64,000 nucleotides of DNA from Rhizomicrobium sp. (GTDB taxonomy: Bacteria; Pseudomonadota; Alphaproteobacteria; Micropepsales; Micropepsaceae), in assembly GCA_035549455.1 (NCBI GenBank), contig DASZQW010000032.1:46960-110959 (forward strand), in the 5' to 3' direction. The position numbers and the translations under genes were made by a program. Below the pieces are notes generated by a model. It saw nothing but the letters and a program-made list of their open reading frames with translations. It was not told where the DNA came from and searched no databases. Positions 751 to 56,365 of the stretch are shown piece by piece (position 1 is the stretch's first letter; each line of letters starts with the position of its first letter).

Positions 751-2113
751 AGTCCGTCTCTGATCTTTTCAGCCGCGCCGCATAAAATCCGTCCATCCCG
801 CCCGAAAGCATAAAGGGCAAGGTGCGCAGGTCGCCCTCCGGCGTGATCCATTCGGCATGGCCGAATACGTCTTCCGCCTTCAGCGGGATGCGCGCAAATT
901 CCGAATTGCGGTCCAGGAACAGCGCGATCTGCTCCTCGCCCTCTTCGCGCTCCAGCGAACAGACCGCGAAGACCAGCGTGCCGCCCGCTTCCACCATCCG
1001 CGCCCCCGCTTCCAGGATGTCGTAGGCTGTCGCCGCCATCGCCATCACATCGGCGGGCTGCTTGATCCAGGGCAGGTCGGGATGGCGGCGGATGGTGCCG
1101 GTGGCGGTGCAGGGCGCATCCACCAGCACGAAGGGCGCGGTGTTGCGGTAGTCCCGCACATCGGCCTCGACCACTTCGGCGGAAAGTTTGGTGCGCGCCA
1201 GATTCTCGCGGATGCGGTTGGCGCGTGTGGGATCAATCTCCACCGCGATCACATGCGCGCCTGCCGCCGCAAGCTGCAGGGTCTTGCCGCCCGGCGCGGC
1301 GCACAGATCAATCACCGTCTTGCCCGCGACATCGCCCAGCAGGGTGGCGGGCAGCGATGCGGCGGCATCCTGCACCCACCAACCCCCTTGCGCGAAGCCC
1401 GGCAGATCCTCGACCCGGCCTTCGCCTGTCAGCCGCCGCACCGCGCCGAACAGCGCGTCGCTTTGCGGATAGTCACCTTTCACCACGATATCGATGGGCG
1501 CGGCCTGCTGATGGGCGCGGGCGATCAGGCGCGCATCGCCGCCATACTGGGCCGACCAGCGCGCCCACAGCCAGTCGGGCGTGGACAGCCGCTCACGGTC
1601 CAGCCCCGACCACACGGCTTCGCCTTCCTTTGCGAGTTTGCGCAGCACGGCGTTGATCAGTGGCTTGAAATGCACTCCCTTGGCGTCCCTGGCCGCCAGG
1701 TCGTTGGCGGCATCGACGGCGGCATGGGCGGCGACTTTCAAAACCAGCAGTTCGCACGCCCCCAGCAGCAATATCTCGCTGGCGGCCCCGGCCTTGTGCG
1801 GCGACAGCGGCTTGGCCATGAATTTGCGCAACACCGCCTCCAGCGCCCCCAGGTGGCGCAGGGTCTGGCTGACCAGCGCGCGCGCGAAGCCGGCATCGCG
1901 CGGCGCAAGCGGGGTTTCCAGCTCGAAATGCAGGGCGCGGTTCTTGCGCAAGGTCGCGGACAGCATGTCCAGCGCCGCCTGCCTGGCGGGAAGTCCGGCG
2001 GCTTCTGTGATTTCCCCCTCCGTCACAGCTCGCATCGGCTTGCCGCCGATAGCTCGCTGCGACACCTCCCCCCGCCAAAGGCTTCGCCTTGCGGGGGGAG
2101 GAAGCCGGTGCAT
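719..2113 (-). CDS. rsmB: 16S rRNA m5C967 methyltransferase RsmB/Sun; start ambiguous (2113 or 2035)
   Basis: NusB-like N-terminus (HAAVDAA, LINAVLRK), VQDAAA, DLCAAPGGKT, DAPCTATGT.RRHPD and AVCSLEREEGE motifs. Confidence 0.9.
   Translation of the reverse strand: MHRLPPPARRSLWRGEVSQRAIGGKPMRAVTEGEITEAAGLPARQAALDMLSATLRKNRALHFELETPLAPRDAGFARALVSQTLRHLGALEAVLRKFMAKPLSPHKAGAASEILLLGACELLVLKVAAHAAVDAANDLAARDAKGVHFKPLINAVLRKLAKEGEAVWSGLDRERLSTPDWLWARWSAQYGGDARLIARAHQQAAPIDIVVKGDYPQSDALFGAVRRLTGEGRVEDLPGFAQGGWWVQDAAASLPATLLGDVAGKTVIDLCAAPGGKTLQLAAAGAHVIAVEIDPTRANRIRENLARTKLSAEVVEADVRDYRNTAPFVLVDAPCTATGTIRRHPDLPWIKQPADVMAMAATAYDILEAGARMVEAGGTLVFAVCSLEREEGEEQIALFLDRNSEFARIPLKAEDVFGHAEWITPEGDLRTLPFMLSGGMDGFYAARLKRSETDFRDGLAHTQS
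2013..2102. repeat. Bipartite palindromic element (family A), overlapping the rsmB 5' end
   Basis: CCCCCTCCGTCACAGCTCG...CTCGCTGCGACACCTCCCCCCGC...GCGGGGGGAGG; matches the copies at 37301 and 39672. Confidence 0.75.
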
Positions 2114-2134
2114 GCCACGATCATGGAATGGTGT

Positions 2135-6570: not shown

Positions 6571-7350
6571 ATGCCACGCCTGCGCGCCGTCGCGATTCTC
6601 GCGACCTTCCTGGCCTTCACGTTTTTGATGATGCCCGTTCAGTGGCTGCTGCTGAAGCTTGGCGCGCGCGCCGCGCGCAGCTTCCCGCATTGGTATCACT
6701 GCCGCGTGGCGCACATCTTCGGCATGCGCATCACCGTGCTGGGAAAGCCGGTCCAGGGCGAAGGCGTGCTGCTGGTCGCCAACCACACCAGCTGGGCCGA
6801 CATCGTGATCTTCTCGGCGGTGGCGCCGATCAGCTTTATCGCCAAGGCCGAGGTCGCCAAATGGCCCTTCTTCGGCACCCTGGCGCGGCTGCAGCGCACT
6901 GTGTTCGTCGAGCGCGCCCGGCGCAGCGCCACCGGCGATGTGCGCGACGCGATCCGCGCGCGGCTTTTGGCGGGCGACGCCCTGGTGCTGTTTCCCGAAG
7001 GCACCAGCCATGACGGCAACACGGTGCTGCCCTTCAAGAGCGCGCTCCTTGGCGCGGCCGAGGCGCGGCTGGACGGTGGCCGCCATGTCAAGGTGCAGCC
7101 GGTGTCGGCGGCCTTCACCGGCTTGTGGGGCATGCCGATGGGGCGCGAGCATCGCCCGCTGTTTGCCTGGTATGGCGATATGGAGATGCTGCCGCATTTG
7201 TGGGAGGCGCTTTTGGCTGGACCGCTGGATGTGGTGGTCCAGTTCCACGAACCCTTCAGCCTGGATCAGATGGACAGGAAGGAACTGGCCGCCCGGGCCG
7301 AGGATATTGTGCGACAGGGTCAGGCGCTGGCCCTGGCAGGCCGCACCTGA
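6571..7350 (+). CDS. Lysophospholipid acyltransferase (PlsC/OlsA-like)
   Basis: NHTSWAD (HxxxxD), FIAKAEV and LFPEGTS motifs. Confidence 0.88.
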   Translation: MPRLRAVAILATFLAFTFLMMPVQWLLLKLGARAARSFPHWYHCRVAHIFGMRITVLGKPVQGEGVLLVANHTSWADIVIFSAVAPISFIAKAEVAKWPFFGTLARLQRTVFVERARRSATGDVRDAIRARLLAGDALVLFPEGTSHDGNTVLPFKSALLGAAEARLDGGRHVKVQPVSAAFTGLWGMPMGREHRPLFAWYGDMEMLPHLWEALLAGPLDVVVQFHEPFSLDQMDRKELAARAEDIVRQGQALALAGRT

Positions 7351-7359
7351 CTTGATTTA

Positions 7360-7444
7360 GCCCCCACCGGCCTTCGCATCGCAAGCGCTGCTACGGCCAC
7401 CTCCCCCGCCGGCGCGCTGGCGCACGCGCAGGGGGAGGCGGGCC
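7360..7444. repeat. Bipartite palindromic element (family A)
   Basis: Reverse complement GCCTCCCCCTG...GGGGGAGGTGGCCG...GCGAAGGCCGGTGGGGGC closely matches the element inside hemD. Confidence 0.75.
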
Positions 7445-7500
7445 TGTGTTTTCGTGGGAGTATTGAATTTGTGGCCCGTGGACCCGATAACCCCCGTTAG

Positions 7501-7581
7501 ATGAAGAAGCTTTTCGTCAAGACCTATGGTTGCCAGATGAACGCCTCCGCGCGCCACAGGCGCGCATTGGAAAGGCCATGA
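7501..7581 (+). other. 26-codon upstream ORF carrying a duplicate of miaB codons 1-15, with its stop overlapping the miaB start
   Basis: Reads [26 protein letters not shown]; TGA 7579-7581 overlaps ATG 7578. Confidence 0.85.
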
Positions 7582-8891
7582 AAAAACTTTTTGTGAAGAC
7601 CTATGGCTGCCAGATGAACGCCTATGATTCCGCCAAGATGGCGGATCTGCTGGCGCCGCTGGGCTATGCCGCGACGGACGCACCCGAAGGCGCCGACATG
7701 GTGATCCTCAACACCTGCCACATCCGCGAAAAGGCGGCGGAAAAAGTCTATTCCGAGCTGGGGCGGCTGAAACGGCTCAAGCGCGGAAAGACCGGTATGC
7801 TGATCGCGGTGGCGGGCTGCGTCGCCCAGGCCGAGGGTGAGGAGATCATCGCCCGCGCCCCGGTGGTGGACATGGTGGTGGGGCCGCAATCCTTTCACCG
7901 CCTGCCCGAAATGATCGCCCGCGCCGCCCGCGCCGAAGGCCGCAGCATCGAAACCGATTTTCCCGCCCTGGAGAAATTCGATTCCCTTCCCGCGCCGCAA
8001 GGCAGCGCGGTATCCGCTTTCCTGACGGTGCAGGAAGGCTGCGACAAATTCTGTACTTTCTGCGTGGTGCCTTATACGCGCGGCGCCGAACATTCGCGCC
8101 CGCCCCAGGCGATCCTGCGCGAAGCGGCGCAGCTGGTCGAAAAAGGCGCGCGCGAGATCGTGCTGCTGGGCCAGAACGTCAACGCCTATGACGGTCCTTC
8201 TTCTGATGGCGACGGCTGGAGCCTGGCAAAATTGTGCGCGGCGCTGGCAAAGATCGATGGCCTGGAACGCATCCGCTACACCACCAGCCATCCGCGTGAC
8301 ATGGCGGACGACCTGATCGCCGCCCATCGCGACAATCCAAAACTGATGCCCTATCTGCATCTGCCGGTGCAGTCTGGATCGGACACGGTGCTGGAAGCGA
8401 TGAACCGCCAGCACAGGGCCGATGACTATCGCCGCCTGGTGGACCGCATCCGCGCCAGCCGCCCCGATATCGCCCTGACCTCGGACTTCATTGTCGGCTT
8501 CCCCGGCGAAAGCGATGCCGATTTCGAGGCGACGCTGGGGCTGGTGCGCGACATCGGCTACGCCACCGCCTTCAGCTTCAAATACTCCCGGCGCCCCGGC
8601 ACGCCCGCTTCCACCTTGCGCAAGCAGATTCCCGAAGATGTCAAGGCGGCGCGACTGGCGGCGCTGCAGACGCTGCTATGGTCGCAGCAATATGGCTTTG
8701 ACGACTCCCAGATCGGCAAGGTGCTCGCGGTGCTGTTCGAGAAGCCCGCCCGCGACGCCGGCCAGCTGATGGGCCGCACGCCCTATCTCCAGCCGGTGCA
8801 TGTGACGGCCGACGCGGCGCGGATCGGCAGCATCGCCAATGTGAGGATCGCGCGCCGCACCGCCAACAGTCTGCACGGAGTCCTGGTTTGA
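7578..8891 (+). CDS. miaB: tRNA-2-methylthio-N6-dimethylallyladenosine synthase
   Basis: [16 protein letters not shown], radical SAM motif [22 protein letters not shown]-terminus. Confidence 0.96.
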
Positions 8892-12770: not shown

Positions 12771-13184
12771 GTGGCCAAGAAGCAAGCCAATCCCATTGAC
12801 GCGCAAGTCGGCAATCGCGTGCGGATCCGCCGCATGCTGATCGGCATGAGTCAGGAACGGCTGGGCGATCTGCTGGGCCTGACTTTCCAGCAGGTTCAGA
12901 AATACGAAAAGGGCGTCAACCGCATCGGCGCCGGCCGCCTGTTCGAGGTCTCGCGCATCCTCAATGTGCCGATCGACTTCTTCTACGAAGGCGTCAGCAG
13001 CCAGCTCGCCGGCCAGCCGGGCATGAATGAGCCACAGGGCGCGCCGCCGGTGATGGAGTTTGTTTCGTCCGGCGAAGGGCTCCAGCTCAGCCTCGCCTTC
13101 ATGAAGATCAAGGACGCCAAGGTCCGCAAGCGCGTGCTGGATCTGGTGAAGTCTTTGGCCGAAGAAGAAGAGCAGAAGCCCTAG
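12771..13184 (+). CDS. XRE/HTH-3 transcriptional regulator
   Basis: NPID..VG.RVR.RR...GMSQE.LG..LGLTFQQVQKYEKG.NRIGAGRL; GTG start inferred; typical neighbour of lnt. Confidence 0.88.
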   Translation: MAKKQANPIDAQVGNRVRIRRMLIGMSQERLGDLLGLTFQQVQKYEKGVNRIGAGRLFEVSRILNVPIDFFYEGVSSQLAGQPGMNEPQGAPPVMEFVSSGEGLQLSLAFMKIKDAKVRKRVLDLVKSLAEEEEQKP

Positions 13185-13287
13185 GCGCGGTTCTTTTGCG
13201 TCGTGGGTTCGTCGCGCCTTTGCTCATGTACTTTCATACACATCGCTCGGCGCTCCTGCCCACGCCACAAAACCCCTCGCGCCTTAA
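13182..13287. repeat. ~106-bp palindromic intergenic element (family B, CIR/ERIC-like)
   Basis: Near-identical to 15963-16069; termini TAGGCGCG...CGCGCCTTAA contain the stop codons of both flanking genes. Confidence 0.85.
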
Positions 13288-13604: not shown

Positions 13605-13652
13605 TGCGGGGCTATAGCATGAACATGGTTGGGCCGCCTATATCGCAGCTCA

Positions 13653-13759
13653 GGCCCGTCTCCCCCTTCGCGGGCGCAAGCCCGCTCAAGGGGGAGGTGG
13701 TTTCAACGTGCGAAGGCGACCGGACGGGAGCCGAGCGAAAGTTGAAACCGGAGGGGGTC
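13653..13759. repeat. Bipartite palindromic element (family A)
   Basis: CTCCCCCTT...AAGGGGGAGGTGGTTTCAAC...GTTGAAACCGGAGGGGG; close to the reverse complement of 20023-20118. Confidence 0.8.
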
Positions 13760-13764
13760 ATCAA

Positions 13765-14610
13765 TCAAAGCCCGATTCGCGCCCGGATATCCGCCGGTGT
13801 CAGCCCCTGGGCGCGCAAGCTTTCCAGCGTCACCGCGCCATCGCGCTTGGAGAATTTCTTTCCCATCTCGTCCAGCACCAGCGCATGGTGCGCATAGGCC
13901 GGTTCCGGCAGGTGCAGTAGCGCCTGCAGCAGACGCTGGATATGGCTGGCCGCCAGCAGGTCTTCGCCGCGCGTCACCAGCGTCACTTGCTGGTAGGCGT
14001 CATCCACCACCACCGCCAGGTGATACGAGGTCGGCATGTCCTTGCGCGCAATCACGATGTCGCCGAAACGCAAGGGATCGACGGCAAAGCGATGGCCATG
14101 CTCCAGGAAGGTCAATGCGCCGGTCAGCGCCGCCGCGCGTGTCACATCCAGCCGCAGGGCAAAATTCTCCCCCGCCGCGATGCGGTCCGCGCCTTCGCCG
14201 CGCGACAAGGTGCGGCAGGTGCCGGGATAGAGGGGCCCCGGCGGCGGAGCCGCCAAATCAGAAGAGACAGGGCCATGTTGTGCTTCGTCGGCCCGGGCGA
14301 TCTCGGCGGCGATTTCGGCGCGGGTGCAGAAGCAGGGATAGACCAGGTCCTGCGCTTTCAGCACCGACAGCGCCTCGGCATAGGCCTGCATGCGGGTGGA
14401 TTGGCGCAAGGTCGGTTCGTCCCAGGACAGGCCCAGCCATTTCAGATCCTGGAAGATTGCCAGGATGAACGCATCGCGAGAGCGGCCTTTGTCGATATCC
14501 TCGATGCGCAGCAGGAAGTCGTCGCCCGACTCATGGGCGGTGATGGCGGCAAGGGCATGGCCCAGATGCAAGAGCCCGGTTGGACTGGGTGCGAACCTTG
14601 TGACAATCAT
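13765..14610 (-). CDS. gluQ: tRNA glutamyl-Q(34) synthetase (GluQRS)
   Basis: RFAPSPTGLLHLGH, LRIEDID, YPCFCTR, YHLAVVVDD and KFSKR motifs; no anticodon-binding domain. Confidence 0.88.
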   Translation of the reverse strand: MIVTRFAPSPTGLLHLGHALAAITAHESGDDFLLRIEDIDKGRSRDAFILAIFQDLKWLGLSWDEPTLRQSTRMQAYAEALSVLKAQDLVYPCFCTRAEIAAEIARADEAQHGPVSSDLAAPPPGPLYPGTCRTLSRGEGADRIAAGENFALRLDVTRAAALTGALTFLEHGHRFAVDPLRFGDIVIARKDMPTSYHLAVVVDDAYQQVTLVTRGEDLLAASHIQRLLQALLHLPEPAYAHHALVLDEMGKKFSKRDGAVTLESLRAQGLTPADIRARIGL

Positions 14611-15404: not shown

Positions 15405-15965
15405 GTGCTAGCCGCCGCTGTCACATCCGGTAACTGTCCGGCGCTGGTGCTCAATGCCGATCATCGGCCGCTGAGCTATTACCCGCTGTCGCTATGGTCC
15501 TGGCAGGACACCATCAAGGCGGTGTTCCTGGAGCGCGTCACCATCCTTGAGGAATATGACCGGGTGGTGCATTCGGCGCGCTTTGCGATGAAGCTGCCCT
15601 CGGTGGTCTCGCTCAAGACCTATATCAGGCCGGCGCGCCGCCCCGCCTTCACCCGCTTCAACGTCTTCCTGCGCGACCAGTTCGAATGCCAGTATTGCGG
15701 CGACCCCAAGGACCTAACCTTCGATCATGTGGTGCCGCGCAGCAAAGGCGGGCGCACCACCTGGGAAAATGTCGTCACCGCCTGTTCGCCCTGCAACCTG
15801 ACCAAGGGGGGGCGCATGCCCGGCCAGGCCAGGATGCATCCGCGCATCCGTCCCCACCAGCCCACGGTGATCGAGCTGCGCGAACATGGCCGCAGGTTTC
15901 CGCCCAATTACCTGCATGACAGTTGGGCGGACTATCTCTACTGGGATTCGGTGCTGGAGCCGTAA
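15405..15965 (+). CDS. Conserved alphaproteobacterial HNH endonuclease
   Basis: ALVLNAD.RPLSYYPLS.W and RD.F.CQYCG...LTFDHV.PRS.GG.T.WENVV.AC..CN motifs; start uncertain. Confidence 0.88.
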   Translation: MLAAAVTSGNCPALVLNADHRPLSYYPLSLWSWQDTIKAVFLERVTILEEYDRVVHSARFAMKLPSVVSLKTYIRPARRPAFTRFNVFLRDQFECQYCGDPKDLTFDHVVPRSKGGRTTWENVVTACSPCNLTKGGRMPGQARMHPRIRPHQPTVIELREHGRRFPPNYLHDSWADYLYWDSVLEP

Positions 15966-16069
15966 GGCGCGGTCTTTTTGCGTCGTGGGTTCGTCGCGCC
16001 GTCGCTCATGCACGTCTTGTGCACATCGCTAGGCGCTCCTGCCCACGCCGCAAATATCCTCGCGCCTAG
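15963..16069. repeat. ~107-bp palindromic intergenic element (family B)
   Basis: Matches 13182-13287; termini TAAGGCGCG...CGCGCCTAG contain the HNH and coq7 stop codons. Confidence 0.85.
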
Positions 16070-19973: not shown

Positions 19974-20022
19974 CCGCCAGTCTTAGAAGCGCAAGCGTTA
20001 ACGGCTGTTAAACATTGATTTC

Positions 20023-20118
20023 AACCTCTTTCGGTTTCCACTTTCGCCTGGCTCCCTGCGGTCGCCTTCGCCCGTTGAAACCACCTCCTTGCCATGCTTC
20101 GCATGAAGGGGGAGGCGC
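20023..20118. repeat. Bipartite palindromic element (family A)
   Basis: Reverse complement aligns with 13653-13759 (GGAGGTGGTTTCAAC..GCGAAGGCGACC..GGGAGCC..GCGAAAGT.GAAACCG). Confidence 0.8.
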
Positions 20119-29066: not shown

Positions 29067-29828
29067 ATGTTGAAAGTCCGCATCATCCCCTGCCTGGACG
29101 TCAAGGACGGCCGCGTCGTCAAGGGCGTGAATTTCGAAGGCCTGCGCGATGCCGGCGATCCGGTGGAGCAGGCGATCCTGTACGACAAGGAAGGCGCCGA
29201 CGAACTCTGCTTTCTGGACATCACCGCCTCTCACGAAAATCGCGGCACCTTGCTGGATGTGGTGCATCGCACCGCCGAAGTCTGCTTCATGCCGCTGACG
29301 GTGGGCGGCGGGGTGCGGACCCTTGATGATATCCGCGCGCTGCTGCTGGCGGGCGCCGACAAGGTCTCGATCAACACCGCCGCGGTGACGCGGCCCGAAT
29401 TCGTGAAGGAGGCGGCGGAGAAGTTCGGCAGCCAGTGCATCGTCGCGGCCATCGACGCCAAGGGGGTGGGCGGCGGGCGCTATGAGATTTTCACCCATGG
29501 CGGGCGCCAGGCCACCGGCATCGATGCCGTGGCCCACGCCCAAAAGCTGGTGGGGTTTGGCGCGGGCGAAATCCTGCTCACATCCATGGACCGCGACGGC
29601 GTCAAGTCGGGCTATGACCTGGACCTGACCCGCGCCGTGTCGGACGCGGTGACAGTGCCGGTGATCGCCTCGGGCGGCGTCGGCAACGTCCAGGACCTGG
29701 TCGATGGCGTGACCAAGGGCCATGCCAGCGCCGTGCTGGCGGCCTCGATCTTTCATTTCGGCGAAGTCTCCATCGCCCAGGCCAAGCAGGCGCTTTCGGG
29801 CGCCGGCTTGCCGGTGCGCCCCATCTGA
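29067..29828 (+). CDS. hisF: Imidazole glycerol phosphate synthase cyclase subunit
   Basis: [39 protein letters not shown] and VIASGGVG motifs. Confidence 0.97.
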
Positions 29829-29830
29829 CC

Positions 29831-29952
29831 GCTTTATTTGTCGCTCCGGCTTCGCCGACGCTTTAATTTGTCGCTCCGGCTTCGCCGACGCTTTTATTTG
29901 TCGCTCCGGCTTCGCCGACGCTTTAATTTGTCGCTCCGGCTTCGCCGACGCT
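29831..29952. repeat. Four tandem ~30-bp hairpin units (GCTTTAATTTGTCGCTCCGGCTTCGCCGAC)
   Basis: Period 30 at 29831/29860/29890/29920; no unique spacers; internal CGGC-TTC-GCCG stem. Confidence 0.95.
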
Positions 29953-29996
29953 CCCCCACGATTGATAGCTGCCGTGTTTTGCGCCTAGGCTGGCGC

Positions 29997-32568: not shown

Positions 32569-32697
32569 ATGACCAAATTCCGCGTCCCGACCGAACAGCC
32601 CTCCGCCGTGAATGCGTTCATCACCGAAGCCTTCAACGCTGCCACCATTGCCCTGGTCGGCGTGCTGGGCATCATCACCCTGGCCGCCACCATCTAA
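32569..32697 (+). CDS. Small (42 aa) predicted single-pass membrane protein
   Basis: AAGGAG RBS 7 nt before ATG, GC3-biased codons, hydrophobic C-terminus ([18 protein letters not shown]); fills the xth-tsaD gap. Confidence 0.65.
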
Positions 32698-33740
32698 CCG
32701 GCAAGCGGCCAGCGCGCTCTGGGGGATGTCCCCAAACCGTCCCCGGGCGCGCCGGTCGATAACTGCTCCACCCCGGCCCAGGCAATCATGGCCGCATTGT
32801 CGGTACAGAGCCTGGGGGGCGGGATGCGGATGACAAAGCCTTCGCCGCGCGCCAGCTTTTCCAGCGCCGCGCCGATCGCCTGATTGGCCGCCACGCCGCC
32901 CGCCACCACCAACAGCTTGCCGCCGGGAAAGTCCGCGCGGAACTGACCCATGGCGATGCGTGTGCGGTCGATCAATATGTCGATCACCGCCGCCTGGAAC
33001 GAGGCGCAGGCATCCGCGACATTCACATCTTCGCCCTCTGCCAGCTGGCGCAGCGCGGTCTTCAGGCCGCTGAAGGAAAAATCCGCGCTCTTGCGAACAT
33101 TATGTCCCGTCACCAAAGGCCGGGGCAGGGCATAGGCGCGCGGATTGCCGTTTCTGGCCGCCTGTTCGACTTGCGGCCCGCCGGGATAGGGCAGGCCCAG
33201 TATCTTGGCCGTCTTGTCGAAGGCCTCGCCCGCCGCATCGTCGATGGTGGCGCCGTAAAGGCGAAAATCGCCCGTCCCACCCACGCCCAGAAGCTGGCAA
33301 TGGCCGCCCGACACCAATAGCAGCAGGAACGGAAACGCCACGCCATGAGTCAGCCGCGCCGTCAAGGCATGGCCCATCAGGTGATTGACCGCGATCAACG
33401 GTTTGCCGCTGGCCAGCGCCAGCGCCTTGGCGGTGGTCAGTCCCACCATGACGCCGCCGATCAGGCCCGGACCCGCCGTGGCGGTGATACCGTCCAGTTC
33501 GGTCAGGGTGATCTTGGCCTCCTCCAGCGCCCGCTCGATCACGCCATCCAGGATTTCCAGATGGGCGCGGGATGCGATTTCCGGCACCACGCCGCCATAG
33601 GGGGCATGCGCCTCGCTCTGGCTGAACACAATGTCGGACAGGATCTCGCCGGGGCCGGGCGCGCGCCCGCGCACCACCGCGGCCGCGGTCTCGTCGCAGC
33701 TGGTTTCGATGCCCAGAATGGTGAAGGTCTTGCCGTTCAT
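32694..33740 (-). CDS. tsaD: t6A transferase TsaD
   Basis: [45 protein letters not shown] and [10 protein letters not shown] motifs. Confidence 0.96.
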
Positions 33741-33765
33741 AGGCCGCTCGTCTAACCCGTTGGGT

Positions 33766-34554
33766 ATGCGGATACTAGTGACACGGCCGCTGGAGGATGG
33801 GCGCGAAATTGCCGCCCGCCTGGCCGAAATGGGCCATCAGGCGCTGCTGGCGCCGCTGTTGGCGCCGGTCTGGCAGGACGGGCCGGAACCGGATTTTGCC
33901 GGTGTGCAGGCGATCCTCGCCACCAGCGCCAACGGCATCCGCGCCCTTGTCCGCAGGATACACAGGCCCACCTCCCCCTTTGCGCGAAGCGCCCAAAAGG
34001 GGGAGGTGGCCGAAGCGAGCGCGGCGGAGCCGCGCGGAAGCGAAGGCCGGAGGGGGTTCGACATATTCAACTTGCCCATCTTCGCGGTCGGTCCCCAGAC
34101 CATGGCCGAGGCGCGCGCCGCCGGATTCGCCGATATCCGCAATGGCGATGGCGACGCAAGCGACCTGGCCCAGGCCGTGACGCGCTGGACCATGCCGGAC
34201 AAGGGCGCGCTGCTGCATGTCTGCGGCGCCGAAGCGCCCGGCACCCTGGCCGAGGCACTGGAAGGGAACGGCTTTTCGCTGCGGCGGTCGGTGCTGTATC
34301 GCGTCGAGGCGGCCCATGCCCTGCCCCCCGAAACAGTGGCGGCGCTCCAGGAGGGCGCGCTGGACGCGGCACTGTTCTTTTCGCCCCGCAGCGCGCGGCT
34401 ATTCTGCGAACTGGCGGCGGGCCTGCCCACCCAGACCCTGGCGGGTTTGTGCATCAGTCCGGCTACCGCGGCAGCCCTGGCGCCGGGCGCCTTTGGCCGG
34501 GTGGCTGCTGCGGCGCGCCCCAACCAGGCCAGCCTGCTCGCCCTTCTGGCATAA
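33766..34554 (+). CDS. hemD: Uroporphyrinogen-III synthase carrying an in-frame ~33-aa repeat-derived insertion
   Basis: [26 protein letters not shown] and FFSPRSA motifs; extra segment between helix and strand. Confidence 0.9.
33964..34058. repeat. Family A palindromic element inside hemD
   Basis: Perfect 14-bp inverted repeat CCACCTCCCCCTTT (33968-33981) / AAAGGGGGAGGTGG (33996-34009), then GGCCGAAGC...GAAGGCCGGAGGGGG. Confidence 0.85.
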
Positions 34555-36353: not shown

Positions 36354-37295
36354 ATGTTAAGCCGTGTCGCAGACTCGCTCTATTGGATGAGCCGCTATGT
36401 CGAGCGGGCCGAGCACACCGCCCGCCTGATCGCGGTCAAGCTGGAATCCATGGTCGAGCAGACGCCGGAAGATGCCGCGGCCAGCTGGGCGCGCGTCAGC
36501 CAGGCGCTGACCGGCGAAAAGCCGACCGGCCATCCCGACGCCTTCGCCACCACCAAGAAACTGGCGTTTGACCGCGACAATGACACCTCGCTGGTCAACT
36601 GCCTGGGGCTGGCGCGCGACAATGCCCGCCAGGTGCGCGAGGCGCTGTCCAACGAAGTGTGGGAAAATCTCAACCGCATGTATCTGCGGCTGGTGCCGGT
36701 GACGATGGAATCGATCTGGGTCCATACCCCCGCCCGCCTGTTCCGCGAAGCGCTGGAGGACATGCACGCCCTGGAAGGCGTGACCTATTCCACGCTCTCC
36801 CACGGCGAAGGCTGGTACTTCCTGGAACTGGGCCGTCATATCGAGCGAGTGCAGCAGATCGGCCGCCTGCTGGACATCCATTTTACCGCCGCCCAGAAAA
36901 GCGAGAACGGCCCCAAATATTTCGACTGGCTGGTGCTCTTGAAATTCTGTACCGCCTTCGAGCCCTATACCAAGGAATACACCGCCTCGATCCGGCCGCA
37001 GAAGATCGCCGAATTCCTGCTGTTCGATTCCGAATTTCCCCATTCCATCTGCTTCTCGGTCGACCGCATGTCCGAGGCCCTGGCGCGGGTGGCGCCGGGC
37101 GCGCCGCCGGCGCGGCGCGCGGCGGTGGAGCGGCAGGCCGGGCGGCTGAAGTCGGCGGTGGATTTCGGCCAGGTCGATGAACTGATGAGCGGCGGCGTGG
37201 CGGCCTTCATCGCCGACATCACCAGGCAGTCCGACCAGATCCACAAGGCGCTCTACTCGTCCTACATCACCTATGGCGCGGAGACGGTGCTTTGA
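36354..37295 (+). CDS. Alpha-E domain protein (DUF403)
   Basis: MLSRVADSLYWMSRYVERAE (ER motif), ARDNAR.VR..LS.EVWE.LN, GRHIER and FP.SI.F motifs. Confidence 0.92.
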   Translation: MLSRVADSLYWMSRYVERAEHTARLIAVKLESMVEQTPEDAAASWARVSQALTGEKPTGHPDAFATTKKLAFDRDNDTSLVNCLGLARDNARQVREALSNEVWENLNRMYLRLVPVTMESIWVHTPARLFREALEDMHALEGVTYSTLSHGEGWYFLELGRHIERVQQIGRLLDIHFTAAQKSENGPKYFDWLVLLKFCTAFEPYTKEYTASIRPQKIAEFLLFDSEFPHSICFSVDRMSEALARVAPGAPPARRAAVERQAGRLKSAVDFGQVDELMSGGVAAFIADITRQSDQIHKALYSSYITYGAETVL

Positions 37296-37300
37296 TGATG

Positions 37301-37425
37301 CCCCCCCTCTGTCACAACTCGGGTGCGCCAAGACGCGCACACCTCGTTGCGACATCTCCCCCCGCCGATGGCGTTCGGGCAGCGAAAGCTTCGCTTTCGC
37401 TTACGCCCTCACCCATGCGGGGGGC
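37301..37425. repeat. Family A palindromic element with an expanded inner hairpin
   Basis: CCCCCCCTCTGTCACAACTCG...CTCGTTGCGACATCTCCCCCCGC...GCGGGGGGC. Confidence 0.75.
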
Positions 37426-37453
37426 GAAAGCCTCCGCCCAGCGGGAACAATAA

Positions 37454-51892: not shown

Positions 51893-52051
51893 ATGATGGC
51901 GCGTACCGCTTTGCTTTGCATCCTGGATGGTTGGGGCCCCGGCGGCGGATGCCGCCCATCGAACCCCGGCGGCGGATGCCGCCCATCGAACACCGGCGGC
52001 GGATGCCGCCCATTGATTAAGGCCAACCCCTGCAGCGAGGCGCCGGCATGA
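51893..52051 (+). other. Upstream ORF carrying a duplicate of gpmI codons 1-14 plus a repeat-encoded tail, with its stop overlapping the gpmI start
   Basis: Reads MMARTALLCILDGWG-(PGGGCRPSN)x~3-...APA*; TGA 52049-52051 overlaps ATG 52048. Confidence 0.85.
51937..52017. repeat. Three tandem 27-bp REP-like hairpin units (CCCCGGCGGCGGATGCCGCCCATCGAA)
   Basis: Units at 51937/51964/51991, each with a GGCGGC-GGAT-GCCGCC stem-loop. Confidence 0.95.
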
Positions 52052-54890: not shown

Positions 54891-56212
54891 AGAAGTTTGC
54901 GTTGGTCGGCCTGGGGCTGGTGGGCGGGTTTGCCGCGGCGATGATCGCGCTGCCGGCGGCGCAAGGCGCCAATGACGCATCCGCCTATGGCCAGCTCGAT
55001 TTGTTCAGCGATGCGTTCGAGCGGGTGCGCGCCAATTATGTGCGCCCGGTCAAGGACAGCGAGCTGATTGACGCCGCCATTCAGGGCATGGTGTCCAACC
55101 TTGATCCCCATTCCAGTTACATGGACGCCAAGCAGTATGGCGACATGCAGGTCACGACCAAGGGCCAGTTCGGCGGCGTCGGCATCGAAGTCACCCAGGA
55201 AGACGGGCTGATCAAGGTGATCAGCCCCATCGACGGCACACCTGCGTCGCGCGCCGGCATCAAGTCAGGCGACCGCATCGCCGGCATCGACGGCTCCTCC
55301 ATCGCCGGCCTGGCGCTGAACGATGCCATCGACAAGATGCGCGGACCCGCCGGCAGCAAGATCACGCTGACCATCCTGCGCGAGGGCGAGAAAAAGCCCT
55401 TCGACGTCACGCTGGTCCGCGCCATCGTCTCGGTCGATGCCGCGACCTGGCGGCGCGAAGGCGATATCGGCTATATCCGCATGCCCGGCTTCAACGAACA
55501 GACCGCCGAGGGACTGGAGCGCGCGGTGCGCGACCTCAAGAAGCAGATCGGCCCCGGCCTCAAGGGCTATGTGCTCGATCTTCGCAACAATCCCGGCGGG
55601 CTGCTCGACCAGGCCATCCAGGTGTCGGATGATTTCCTGACCTCGGGCGAGATCGTTTCCACCCGCGGCCGTCACGCCGACGACACCCAGCGCTATGACG
55701 CCAAGTCGGGCGACATCACCGACGGCAAGCCGGTCGTGGTGCTGATCAATGCCGGCACCGCCAGCGCGTCCGAAATCGTCTCCGGTGCGCTGCAGGATCA
55801 CAAGCGCGCCACCATCATCGGCATGACCAGCTTCGGCAAGGGCTCGGTGCAGACCATCATCCCCCTGGGCGAGGGCCGCGGCGCGCTGCGCCTGACCACG
55901 GCGCGCTACTACACGCCCTCGGGTCACTCGATCCAGGCCCAGGGCATCATCCCCGACATCCAGGTGGCGCAGGGCGACGAAGCCAGCGTGCCCAAGCTGG
56001 CGCGTCCGTCGGAGGCCGATCTGCGCGGCCATCTGTTGGGCGAGCCGATTCCGGCCACGCGCGCCAATGCTCCGGTGATCAAGCCCGCCCCCGGCAGGAA
56101 GTATGACGACTTCCAGCTTTCCTATGCGGAAGACCTGCTGCACGGAAAGATGACGGTCGCCGCCGCCACCACTCCGGCGCCCGACCAGAAATCCGCCGCC
56201 ACGGCGCGTTAA
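54887..56212 (+). CDS. ctpA: S41 carboxyl-terminal processing protease
   Basis: LDPHS.Y, PDZ (FGGVGIEV), DLRNNPGG.L, TASASEI and SFGKGSVQ motifs. Confidence 0.93.
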   Translation: MKKFALVGLGLVGGFAAAMIALPAAQGANDASAYGQLDLFSDAFERVRANYVRPVKDSELIDAAIQGMVSNLDPHSSYMDAKQYGDMQVTTKGQFGGVGIEVTQEDGLIKVISPIDGTPASRAGIKSGDRIAGIDGSSIAGLALNDAIDKMRGPAGSKITLTILREGEKKPFDVTLVRAIVSVDAATWRREGDIGYIRMPGFNEQTAEGLERAVRDLKKQIGPGLKGYVLDLRNNPGGLLDQAIQVSDDFLTSGEIVSTRGRHADDTQRYDAKSGDITDGKPVVVLINAGTASASEIVSGALQDHKRATIIGMTSFGKGSVQTIIPLGEGRGALRLTTARYYTPSGHSIQAQGIIPDIQVAQGDEASVPKLARPSEADLRGHLLGEPIPATRANAPVIKPAPGRKYDDFQLSYAEDLLHGKMTVAAATTPAPDQKSAATAR

Positions 56213-56217
56213 TACCC

Positions 56218-56306
56218 AACCCCCTCCGGTTTCAGCTTTCTCTCGGCGCTGCGCGCCTCGATTGCTGAAACTGCCTCCCCCTTGCCGCGCTTCGCGCGAC
56301 GGGGCC
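56218..56306. repeat. Family A palindromic element
   Basis: Reverse complement AAGGGGGAGGCAGTTTCAGC...GCTGAAACCGGAGGGG matches the 13653 copy. Confidence 0.78.
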
Positions 56307-56365
56307 TGTGCTTGCCGTTAATACCTATTAACCGCCCCGTAACCATGTCCCGCGTAAAAGGGGGC

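Follow-up and report, generated by a model that had tools for sequence, protein, structure and literature searches.

The window analysed here, the whole 64,000-nucleotide stretch of DNA from a Rhizomicrobium sp. draft genome, carries a gene for uroporphyrinogen-III synthase (hemD) that contains an in-frame copy of a dispersed repeat. The features of the locus are as follows.

32694-33740, minus strand: tsaD, the divergent neighbour of hemD, used as synteny anchor (open reading frame list, and TsaD Pfam annotation in orthologous loci)
33766-34554, plus strand: hemD (uroporphyrinogen-III synthase), 262 aa plus stop, with a Pfam HEM4 match
33960-34057, plus strand: core of the inserted repeat, 98 nt (nhmmer envelope 33957-34067; E 1e-17 to 7e-20 against the family model)
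33970-34007, plus strand: hairpin 1, with perfect 14-bp arms and an inner GCGC-GAA-GCGC stem-loop
34008-34048, plus strand: hairpin 2 (GGCC...GGCC), with an inner 7-bp stem, GCGCGGC/GCCGCGC
34049-34057, plus strand: 3' family signature CGGAGGGGGT, assigned from the family alignment and the fold

As the orthologues show, hemD starts at ATG 33766 (MRILVTRP...), within a longer open reading frame that spans 33631-34554, and its product matches Pfam HEM4 (PF02602) with E 2e-35 and 122.5 bits (cut-off 27.5), the alignment covering positions 2-230 of the 231-position profile. The reading frame is unbroken and the protein retains all columns that are invariant across 65 HemD sequences, so that the preserved frame and intact downstream motifs described in an initial annotation of this DNA were confirmed. 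The gene order tsaD / hemD / ATP-grasp gene, with hemD upstream of the ATP-grasp gene, is identical in four other loci (L033, L034, L039 and L179), and since hemD is divergent from tsaD in orthologous loci, the insert-bearing gene can be regarded as the housekeeping orthologue. Both hemC and hemE are present in the same genome, which provides the pathway context.

The extra segment in HemD

A six-frame search of 30 related genomes recovered hemD in 24 of them, and 20 orthologues were aligned. The insert is missing from HemD in all 20 of these relatives, where T(A/K)RRD stands instead, and the net gain in our sequence is 33 aa, at the lower end of the 33-37 extra residues first estimated. It had also been considered that orthologues lacking the repeat might be equally long at this point; they are in fact 33 aa shorter at the site. 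Matches of the relatives' HemD split at query residues 67 and ~102, yet they are contiguous in the relatives' own DNA, and the short form of the loop occurs in 112 of the 120 best database homologues. The extra stretch comprises residues I65-N102 (38 residues, encoded by 33958-34071), with the repeat core itself encoding about residues 65-98, and it replaces about four host codons (T-A-R-R) with the frame kept.

At the DNA level, the segment contains the perfect 14-bp inverted repeat that the initial annotation had reported, in which CCACCTCCCCCTTT (33968-33981) pairs with AAAGGGGGAGGTGG (33996-34009), and an 11-mer, CCACCTCCCCC, that occurs four times in the window against 0.05 occurrences expected by chance. 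Folding of the 98-nt repeat with RNAfold gave a minimum free energy of -57.9 kcal/mol (z = -3.6), and none of 200 shuffled sequences was equally stable. The last four bases of CGGAGGGGGT pair with 33966-33969 and thereby close a three-way junction, this terminal complementarity of the element amounting to 4-5 bp (GGCCC...GGGGG). No direct repeats were seen at the insert junction, though the insertion event appears to be old, and an Rfam scan of the whole 64-kb window returned no family at the gathering threshold. Judged from these alignments and from the family described below, the insert is an in-frame copy of a dispersed palindromic repeat.

Structural modelling

The AlphaFold model of HemD, computed with the 65-sequence alignment (mean pLDDT 88.3, pTM 0.78), predicts a confident two-domain alpha/beta UROS fold outside the insert, and a Foldseek search of the PDB with this model returned uroporphyrinogen-III synthases for all of the top 13 matches (best 4es6, E 1e-12). 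Residues 69-96 are the sole stretch with pLDDT <50 and are flanked by a helix (55-65) and a strand (105-107). The insert is thus modelled as a disordered loop between confident secondary-structure elements, which agrees with the loop insertion originally proposed. The P. aeruginosa HemD has a loop that is 5 residues longer at the site matching the insert position. Alpha/beta domains of this kind bind substrate through strand-to-helix loops on one face and have their helix-to-strand loops on the other; by this fold topology, the insert loop should face away from the inter-domain active-site cleft. The insert is probably transcribed and translated, and the enzyme that carries it is predicted, on the strength of the purifying selection described below, to be active in the cyclisation of hydroxymethylbilane.

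A second HEM4 gene

The genome contains a second HEM4 gene (C31:20875-21696, locus L002 1444-2265; 273 aa, E 1.7e-32), flanked by a nitrate-reductase-like gene (BFD-type domain) and by moaA, which could back up HemD activity in this genome. The initial annotation had allowed for a non-functional gene with a second hemD elsewhere. The second half of this proposal stands, while the first does not: the insert-bearing gene is linked to tsaD, and its dN/dS among insert-bearing lineages is 0.23-0.44 (Nei-Gojobori), which indicates a functional gene under purifying selection. If the insert had inactivated hemD and left the C31 gene to supply uroporphyrinogen-III synthase, neither these ratios nor the intact open reading frame with all of its family-invariant residues would fit easily. 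Furthermore, in the insert-bearing species G065 (genome 80% complete) the insert-bearing hemD is the only HEM4 gene found, and among ten relatives checked a second HEM4 gene was present in G192 only; one HEM4 gene is also the rule among insert-less relatives, and the paralogue is therefore not tied to the insert. The linkage to tsaD, the dN/dS values and the situation in G065 together identify the insert-bearing hemD as the housekeeping enzyme, and we give its inactivation very little credence.

The repeat family

Iterated nhmmer searches found 45 copies of the repeat in the 2.52-Mb, 64%-GC, 44-contig draft genome, eight of them in the window. Besides the hemD copy, the window contains the following.

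2005-2116, minus strand: copy of the GTCGCA..TGTGAC subtype, which overlaps the rsmB reading frame at its 5' end
7352-7453, minus strand: intergenic copy directly after the stop codon at 7349-7351
13647-13768, plus strand: intergenic copy of the TTTCA..TGAAA subtype (z = -4.9)
20014-20117, minus strand: intergenic copy, partly decayed (nhmmer; fold)
37291-37436, minus strand: intergenic copy between an Alpha-E-domain gene and a transglutaminase-like gene, with a diverged orthologous copy in L039
39664-39795, minus strand: intergenic copy (nhmmer)
56209-56314, minus strand: intergenic copy (nhmmer; fold)

The copy at 7352-7453 is identical to the hemD insert at 73 of 86 aligned bases (85%; 68% counting gap columns) and belongs to the same family, as the initial annotation had recognised from positions 7360-7444. 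Family members share a layout that runs from 5' (A)CACAGGCCCGCCTCCCCCTT through a variable self-complementary inner stem, AAGGGGGAGGTGG and hairpin 2, of which there are three subtypes, to 3' CCGGAGGGGGT; the conserved hairpin is formed by CCTCCCCC/GGGGGAGGTGG. The copies fold as a three-way junction, most intact ones with z = -3.4 to -4.9.

When genes were called by a crude GC3 criterion, the start of most free copies fell no more than ~10 nt from a stop codon, and those between tandem genes were antisense in 19 cases versus sense in 4 (same call); the hemD copy has the minority orientation among family copies. Read in the mRNA sense, the end of the element is TGA/TAA-CCCCCTCC, a sequence by which a family element can supply the stop codon of the adjoining gene. 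A pattern scan of GTDB species genomes located the family mainly in Rhizomicrobium sp. and in uncultured alphaproteobacterial MAGs from lakes and soils, among which it is widespread. A search for the Y1/RAYT transposase (PF01797) gave 0 hits in four family-carrying genomes (G000, which is the genome studied here, G065, G192 and G194), while control genomes responded.

Two of the copies in the window deserve separate mention. In the longest rsmB frame, ~37 codons at the 5' end overlap the copy at 2005-2116, and both candidate starts, M1 and M27, lie inside the element, so that RsmB may owe its start or N-terminus to the repeat. The copy at 37291-37436 and its counterpart in L039 (4561-4693) occupy the same intergenic site, and only their terminal motifs are conserved while the interior subtypes differ, a difference that reflects either decay or replacement in place.

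Other repeats were noted in the window as well. The gene that begins ATGAAGAAGCTTTTCGTCAAGACC has its initial 46 nt (7501-7546) repeated 77 nt downstream, at 7578-7623, with 89% identity, and this duplicated gene start (7501-7623) adjoins the family copy at 7352-7453. There are two tandem arrays, one of four to five 30-nt units (TTGTCGCTCCGGCTTCGCCGACGCTTTAAT) at 29808-29957 and one of three 27-nt units (CCCCGGCGGCGGATGCCGCCCATCGAA) at 51937-52017, and a separate ~100-nt repeat, unrelated to the hemD family, occurs at 13183-13284 and 15965-16067 (2.78 kb apart, ~90% identity).

In-frame copies in other genes

Family copies in frame were also found within two other genes of this genome, in both cases in the orientation opposite to that of the hemD copy. 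In a gene of the metallo-beta-lactamase fold (C16:77999-78931), a short copy at C16:78536-78598 adds IPPPAFAGPRASYSHLPRMAG, a net 18 aa, and this insert is absent from the orthologues in G001, G015 and G009. In a PP2C/SpoIIE-like gene (C10:11462-12370), a nearly intact copy at C10:11957-12049 contributes 31 aa (aa 108-138), and the orthologues in six relatives have ~4 aa at the insert site. Candidate in-gene copies that a crude open reading frame call had placed at tyrS (C12), a crotonase-family gene (C11) and a pntA-like gene (C23) were rejected, as they lie upstream of the true start, and one at a DUF448-like gene (C39) was not counted, as it possibly does too. Separately, the flgC frame runs ~110 codons past the usual C-terminus through a family copy at C29:28091-28186; this read-through may mean that the protein is extended at its C-terminus, that a stop was lost or that the assembly is wrong.

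Occurrence and age of the hemD insert

A homologous insert was found in eight database clusters (259-274 aa; P0001-P0004, P0006, P0009, P0014 and P0024) and, in addition, in the GTDB species G065. The hemD-type insert pattern occurs in two of 229 species representatives of the genus, i.e. this genome and G065, and the insert junction is common to at least eight other hemD lineages, the host proteins of which are 60-76% identical. Insert DNA could be obtained for seven of the other lineages (P0003, P0004, P0006, P0009, P0014, P0024 and G065). All seven, like our own, have the same junction, lack the TARR codons and carry the same short hairpin-2 variant, and the two-hairpin architecture is common to these seven genes as well. 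Across the insert-bearing lineages, the host hemD has a dS of 0.63-1.01 relative to the hemD of this genome (Nei-Gojobori).

The G065 insert is 90% identical to that of this genome, but at most 81% identical to the free copies of G065 and at most 77% to those of G000, which indicates that the hemD inserts share an origin and have not been homogenised against local copies. The same comparison (inserts of G000 and G065 90% alike, free copies <=81%) led us to reject local gene conversion as what keeps the insert conserved. From these data we infer a single origin of the hemD insert. Judging by the divergence of the host genes, the insertion is old, having happened before several species-level lineages within a Rhizomicrobium-like genus diverged, and the 'recent' insertion of the initial annotation does not hold in view of the junction shared with at least eight other hemD lineages at a host dS of 0.63-1.0.

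In a 44-contig draft with ~45 copies of a repeat, one copy might have been misplaced in hemD by the assembler. The likelihood of such an artefact is practically negligible, as independent assemblies from JGI, ENA and Logan data, and one further GTDB genome, also yielded hemD with the insert; 13 contigs carry the species cluster P0001, which is 99% identical and has the insert, and the frame is exactly kept.

Conservation of the insert

Conservation is higher in the insert than in the surrounding gene. Identity at codon positions 1, 2 and 3 is 0.83, 0.86 and 0.80 in the insert versus 0.75, 0.80 and 0.54 in the host hemD, and the insert dS is 0.08-0.41 versus 0.63-1.01 for the host (Nei-Gojobori), synonymous sites evolving 2-7 times slower than those of the host. 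The best stretch of 33 codons falls in the insert and reached 0.84 nucleotide and 0.82 third-position identity, compared to maxima of 0.75 and 0.63 among 182 such stretches elsewhere in the gene. The supposition that the insert is only 'tolerated' is therefore not supported, as it is the most conserved DNA in the gene, third codon positions included. The flanks abutting the insert diverged like the rest of hemD, and a recombination tract as the cause of the conservation was rejected since identity falls to the gene average just outside the element. The orthologous intergenic copy, on the other hand, has diverged almost beyond alignment, indicating that unconstrained copies decay over this time span.

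These observations bear on a simpler account, in which a recent, selectively neutral insertion in this lineage is merely tolerated. The modelled disorder of the loop and the occurrence of the pattern in only two of the 229 species representatives would suit this account. It is contradicted, however, by the eight or more other lineages that share insert and junction (host dS 0.63-1.0) and by the conservation of the insert above any other part of hemD, synonymous sites included; the other insert-bearing contigs belong to different species (host identity 60-72%), and the orthologous intergenic copy has decayed. We consider it highly improbable.

What the excess conservation acts on can be addressed in part. 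In the well-supported clade of P0006, P0009, P0014 and P0024, insert identity is 0.88-0.94 at positions 1+2 versus 0.73-0.79 at position 3, a pattern that suggests that the insert peptide is under constraint too. In the alignment of hemD inserts, 91% of pair cells are paired and one pair covaries, shuffled alignments giving one too; a covariation test on the seven inserts yielded no significant signal, most pairs never varying. It is their conservation that would point to selection on the insert hairpins. As a change in a stem would damage pairing, peptide or both, the excess conservation is probably due to joint constraint on peptide and RNA or DNA hairpins.

Constraint on nucleotides, together with the very stable RNA fold, might also be expected of a segment that is removed after transcription or translation in the manner of an intron or intein, leaving a normal loop in the mature protein. 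Self-splicing introns and inteins are, however, far larger than 98 nt or 33 aa, the size of the element considered here. The window shows no Rfam family at the gathering threshold and hence no group I/II intron; the higher identity of positions 1+2 over position 3 (0.88-0.94 against 0.73-0.79) within the P0006/P0009/P0014/P0024 clade is as if the segment were translated; and in-frame copies of the family occur in both orientations. Removal of the segment thus appears highly implausible.

Distribution of the insert on gene trees

The distribution of the insert is in conflict with the phylogeny of the neighbouring genes. For hemD alone (insert removed), a single insert-bearing clade was not rejected (AU p 0.25), and trees of HemD alone, with 84 and 77 proteins, have a weak backbone and neither support nor reject one origin. 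For tsaD, hemD (insert removed) and the ATP-grasp gene combined (1038 columns, 17 taxa), monophyly of the insert-bearers was rejected (AU p 0.006), and the three-gene bootstrap trees imply 3-4 changes of insert state, 0% of them being compatible with one change; for the flanking genes alone (tsaD and ATP-grasp), monophyly was marginally rejected (AU p 0.042). Both the three-gene and the flank trees have poorly resolved backbones and include many fragment rows.

Several further features go with this conflict. Judged by the neighbouring genes, this genome is closest to P0016, which lacks the insert (86-90% identity). The insert-less alleles retain an outgroup-like RRTARRD, which makes precise deletion of the insert unlikely. 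Insert identity does not follow host identity: our insert is 90% identical to those of P0006/P0024, with host proteins 61% identical, and 78% identical to that of P0004, with host proteins 70% identical. Finally, free copies 84-85% identical to the hemD insert are present in the insert-less genomes G192 and G194.

All of these features could be accommodated if the insert were younger than its host alleles, having spread laterally or recurrently by recombination of hemD segments or by homing-like placement through an enzyme acting in trans; this would explain both the patchy distribution and the high similarity of the inserts, and the RRTARRD of insert-less alleles speaks against the alternative of repeated precise loss. 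Several points disfavour such spread: (i) hemD alone does not reject one clade, and the trees that do reject it have the weak backbones and fragment rows mentioned above; (ii) there is no co-conversion tract, the sequence beside the insert being as diverged as the rest of the gene; (iii) an identical junction combining insertion and deletion is unlikely to recur; (iv) the 98-nt element encodes no enzyme, and PF01797 is absent in the four genomes searched. We regard this explanation as unlikely. Most likely, a single old insertion was followed by exchange of hemD alleles, or the phylogeny lacks resolution, with homing-like spread of the insert as a live alternative.

Discussion

We favour, with a probability of roughly 0.75, an old, single, in-frame insertion of a repeat into the housekeeping hemD, which is translated as a loop and kept by selection. 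In mechanistic terms, a copy of a strongly folding repeat of ~100 nt would have inserted once into hemD, in the loop between the helix that follows the TSANG motif and the beta-strand after it. It would have kept the frame, replaced the T-A-R-R codons and been translated as a disordered loop that adds a net ~33 residues; lying opposite the active-site cleft, this loop would let the enzyme keep working, and purifying selection would since have maintained the insert, more strongly than it has the remainder of hemD.

More tentatively, and with less than even odds, the hemD copy may have been domesticated, i.e. selected as an RNA or DNA three-way junction, or have spread between the alleles of different species in a homing-like manner by an enzyme in trans, or both, which would explain why no other stretch of the gene is as well conserved and why the distribution of the insert disagrees with the trees of neighbouring genes. 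If domesticated, the insert might be a binding site, or a structure within the gene that has a regulatory or pausing role.

What is unusual about the old insertion favoured here is that the insert evolves slower than the essential enzyme around it, synonymous sites included, and that its presence and absence conflict with the local gene tree. The insert-less orthologues serve as natural controls for an in-frame repeat insertion, so that the locus offers a tractable system for asking whether loops born from selfish DNA become selected, at the level of peptide, RNA or DNA, and whether such inserts move between alleles.

Comparison with known systems

The preference for sites just downstream of genes, the orientation bias, the high GC content and the pronounced structure recall the extragenic palindromes of the REP/BIME type (PMC3733652). 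REPs, however, measure 20-40 bp, whereas hemD family elements have ~100 nt, two hairpins and a closing helix, and REPs are extragenic by definition (PMC3733652); the hemD family also comes without a RAYT (PF01797) in the four genomes searched. Closer in their relation to genes are QMITE1 and QMITE2 of Coxiella burnetii, small non-autonomous repeats that are sometimes fused in frame with open reading frames (PMC5896051), and intragenic ERIC elements, for which in-frame fusions to open reading frames have been described (Delihas, 2007, cited in PMC10969869). Akin to the present family, both are small non-autonomous repeats that occur in frame with open reading frames and supply stops or C-terminal residues (PMC5896051; PMC10969869). 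Those cases mostly concern terminal fusions or hypothetical proteins, whereas the inserts described here are internal, lie in enzymes of known fold and can be compared with insert-less orthologues.

In-frame palindromic repeats have been treated as a Rickettsia curiosity, and they are found here in free-living, GC-rich alphaproteobacteria. Nearly half of the Rickettsia palindromic elements (RPEs; Ogata et al., 2000, Science 290:347; Ogata et al., 2002) lie in open reading frames, according to the review PMC10969869. RPEs resemble the hemD family in being dispersed, hairpin-forming repeats of ~100-150 bp that sit in frame in unrelated housekeeping genes of an alphaproteobacterial host, and in being translated as extra loops that fit the host fold, as is modelled here for HemD. 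They differ in that Rickettsia is an obligate intracellular parasite, whereas the hosts of the hemD family are free-living in freshwater and soil, with 64% GC in the genome studied; in that ~3 of 45 copies are inside genes here, compared to the nearly half given for RPEs in PMC10969869; in that most copies here directly follow stop codons and show a strong orientation bias; and in that the hemD copy shows higher conservation than the gene that carries it. In light of the 64% GC composition and of the motifs, homology to the RPE families is unlikely, and we liken the hemD family to RPEs by behaviour and not by sequence, as what would be a separate family of RPE-like elements.
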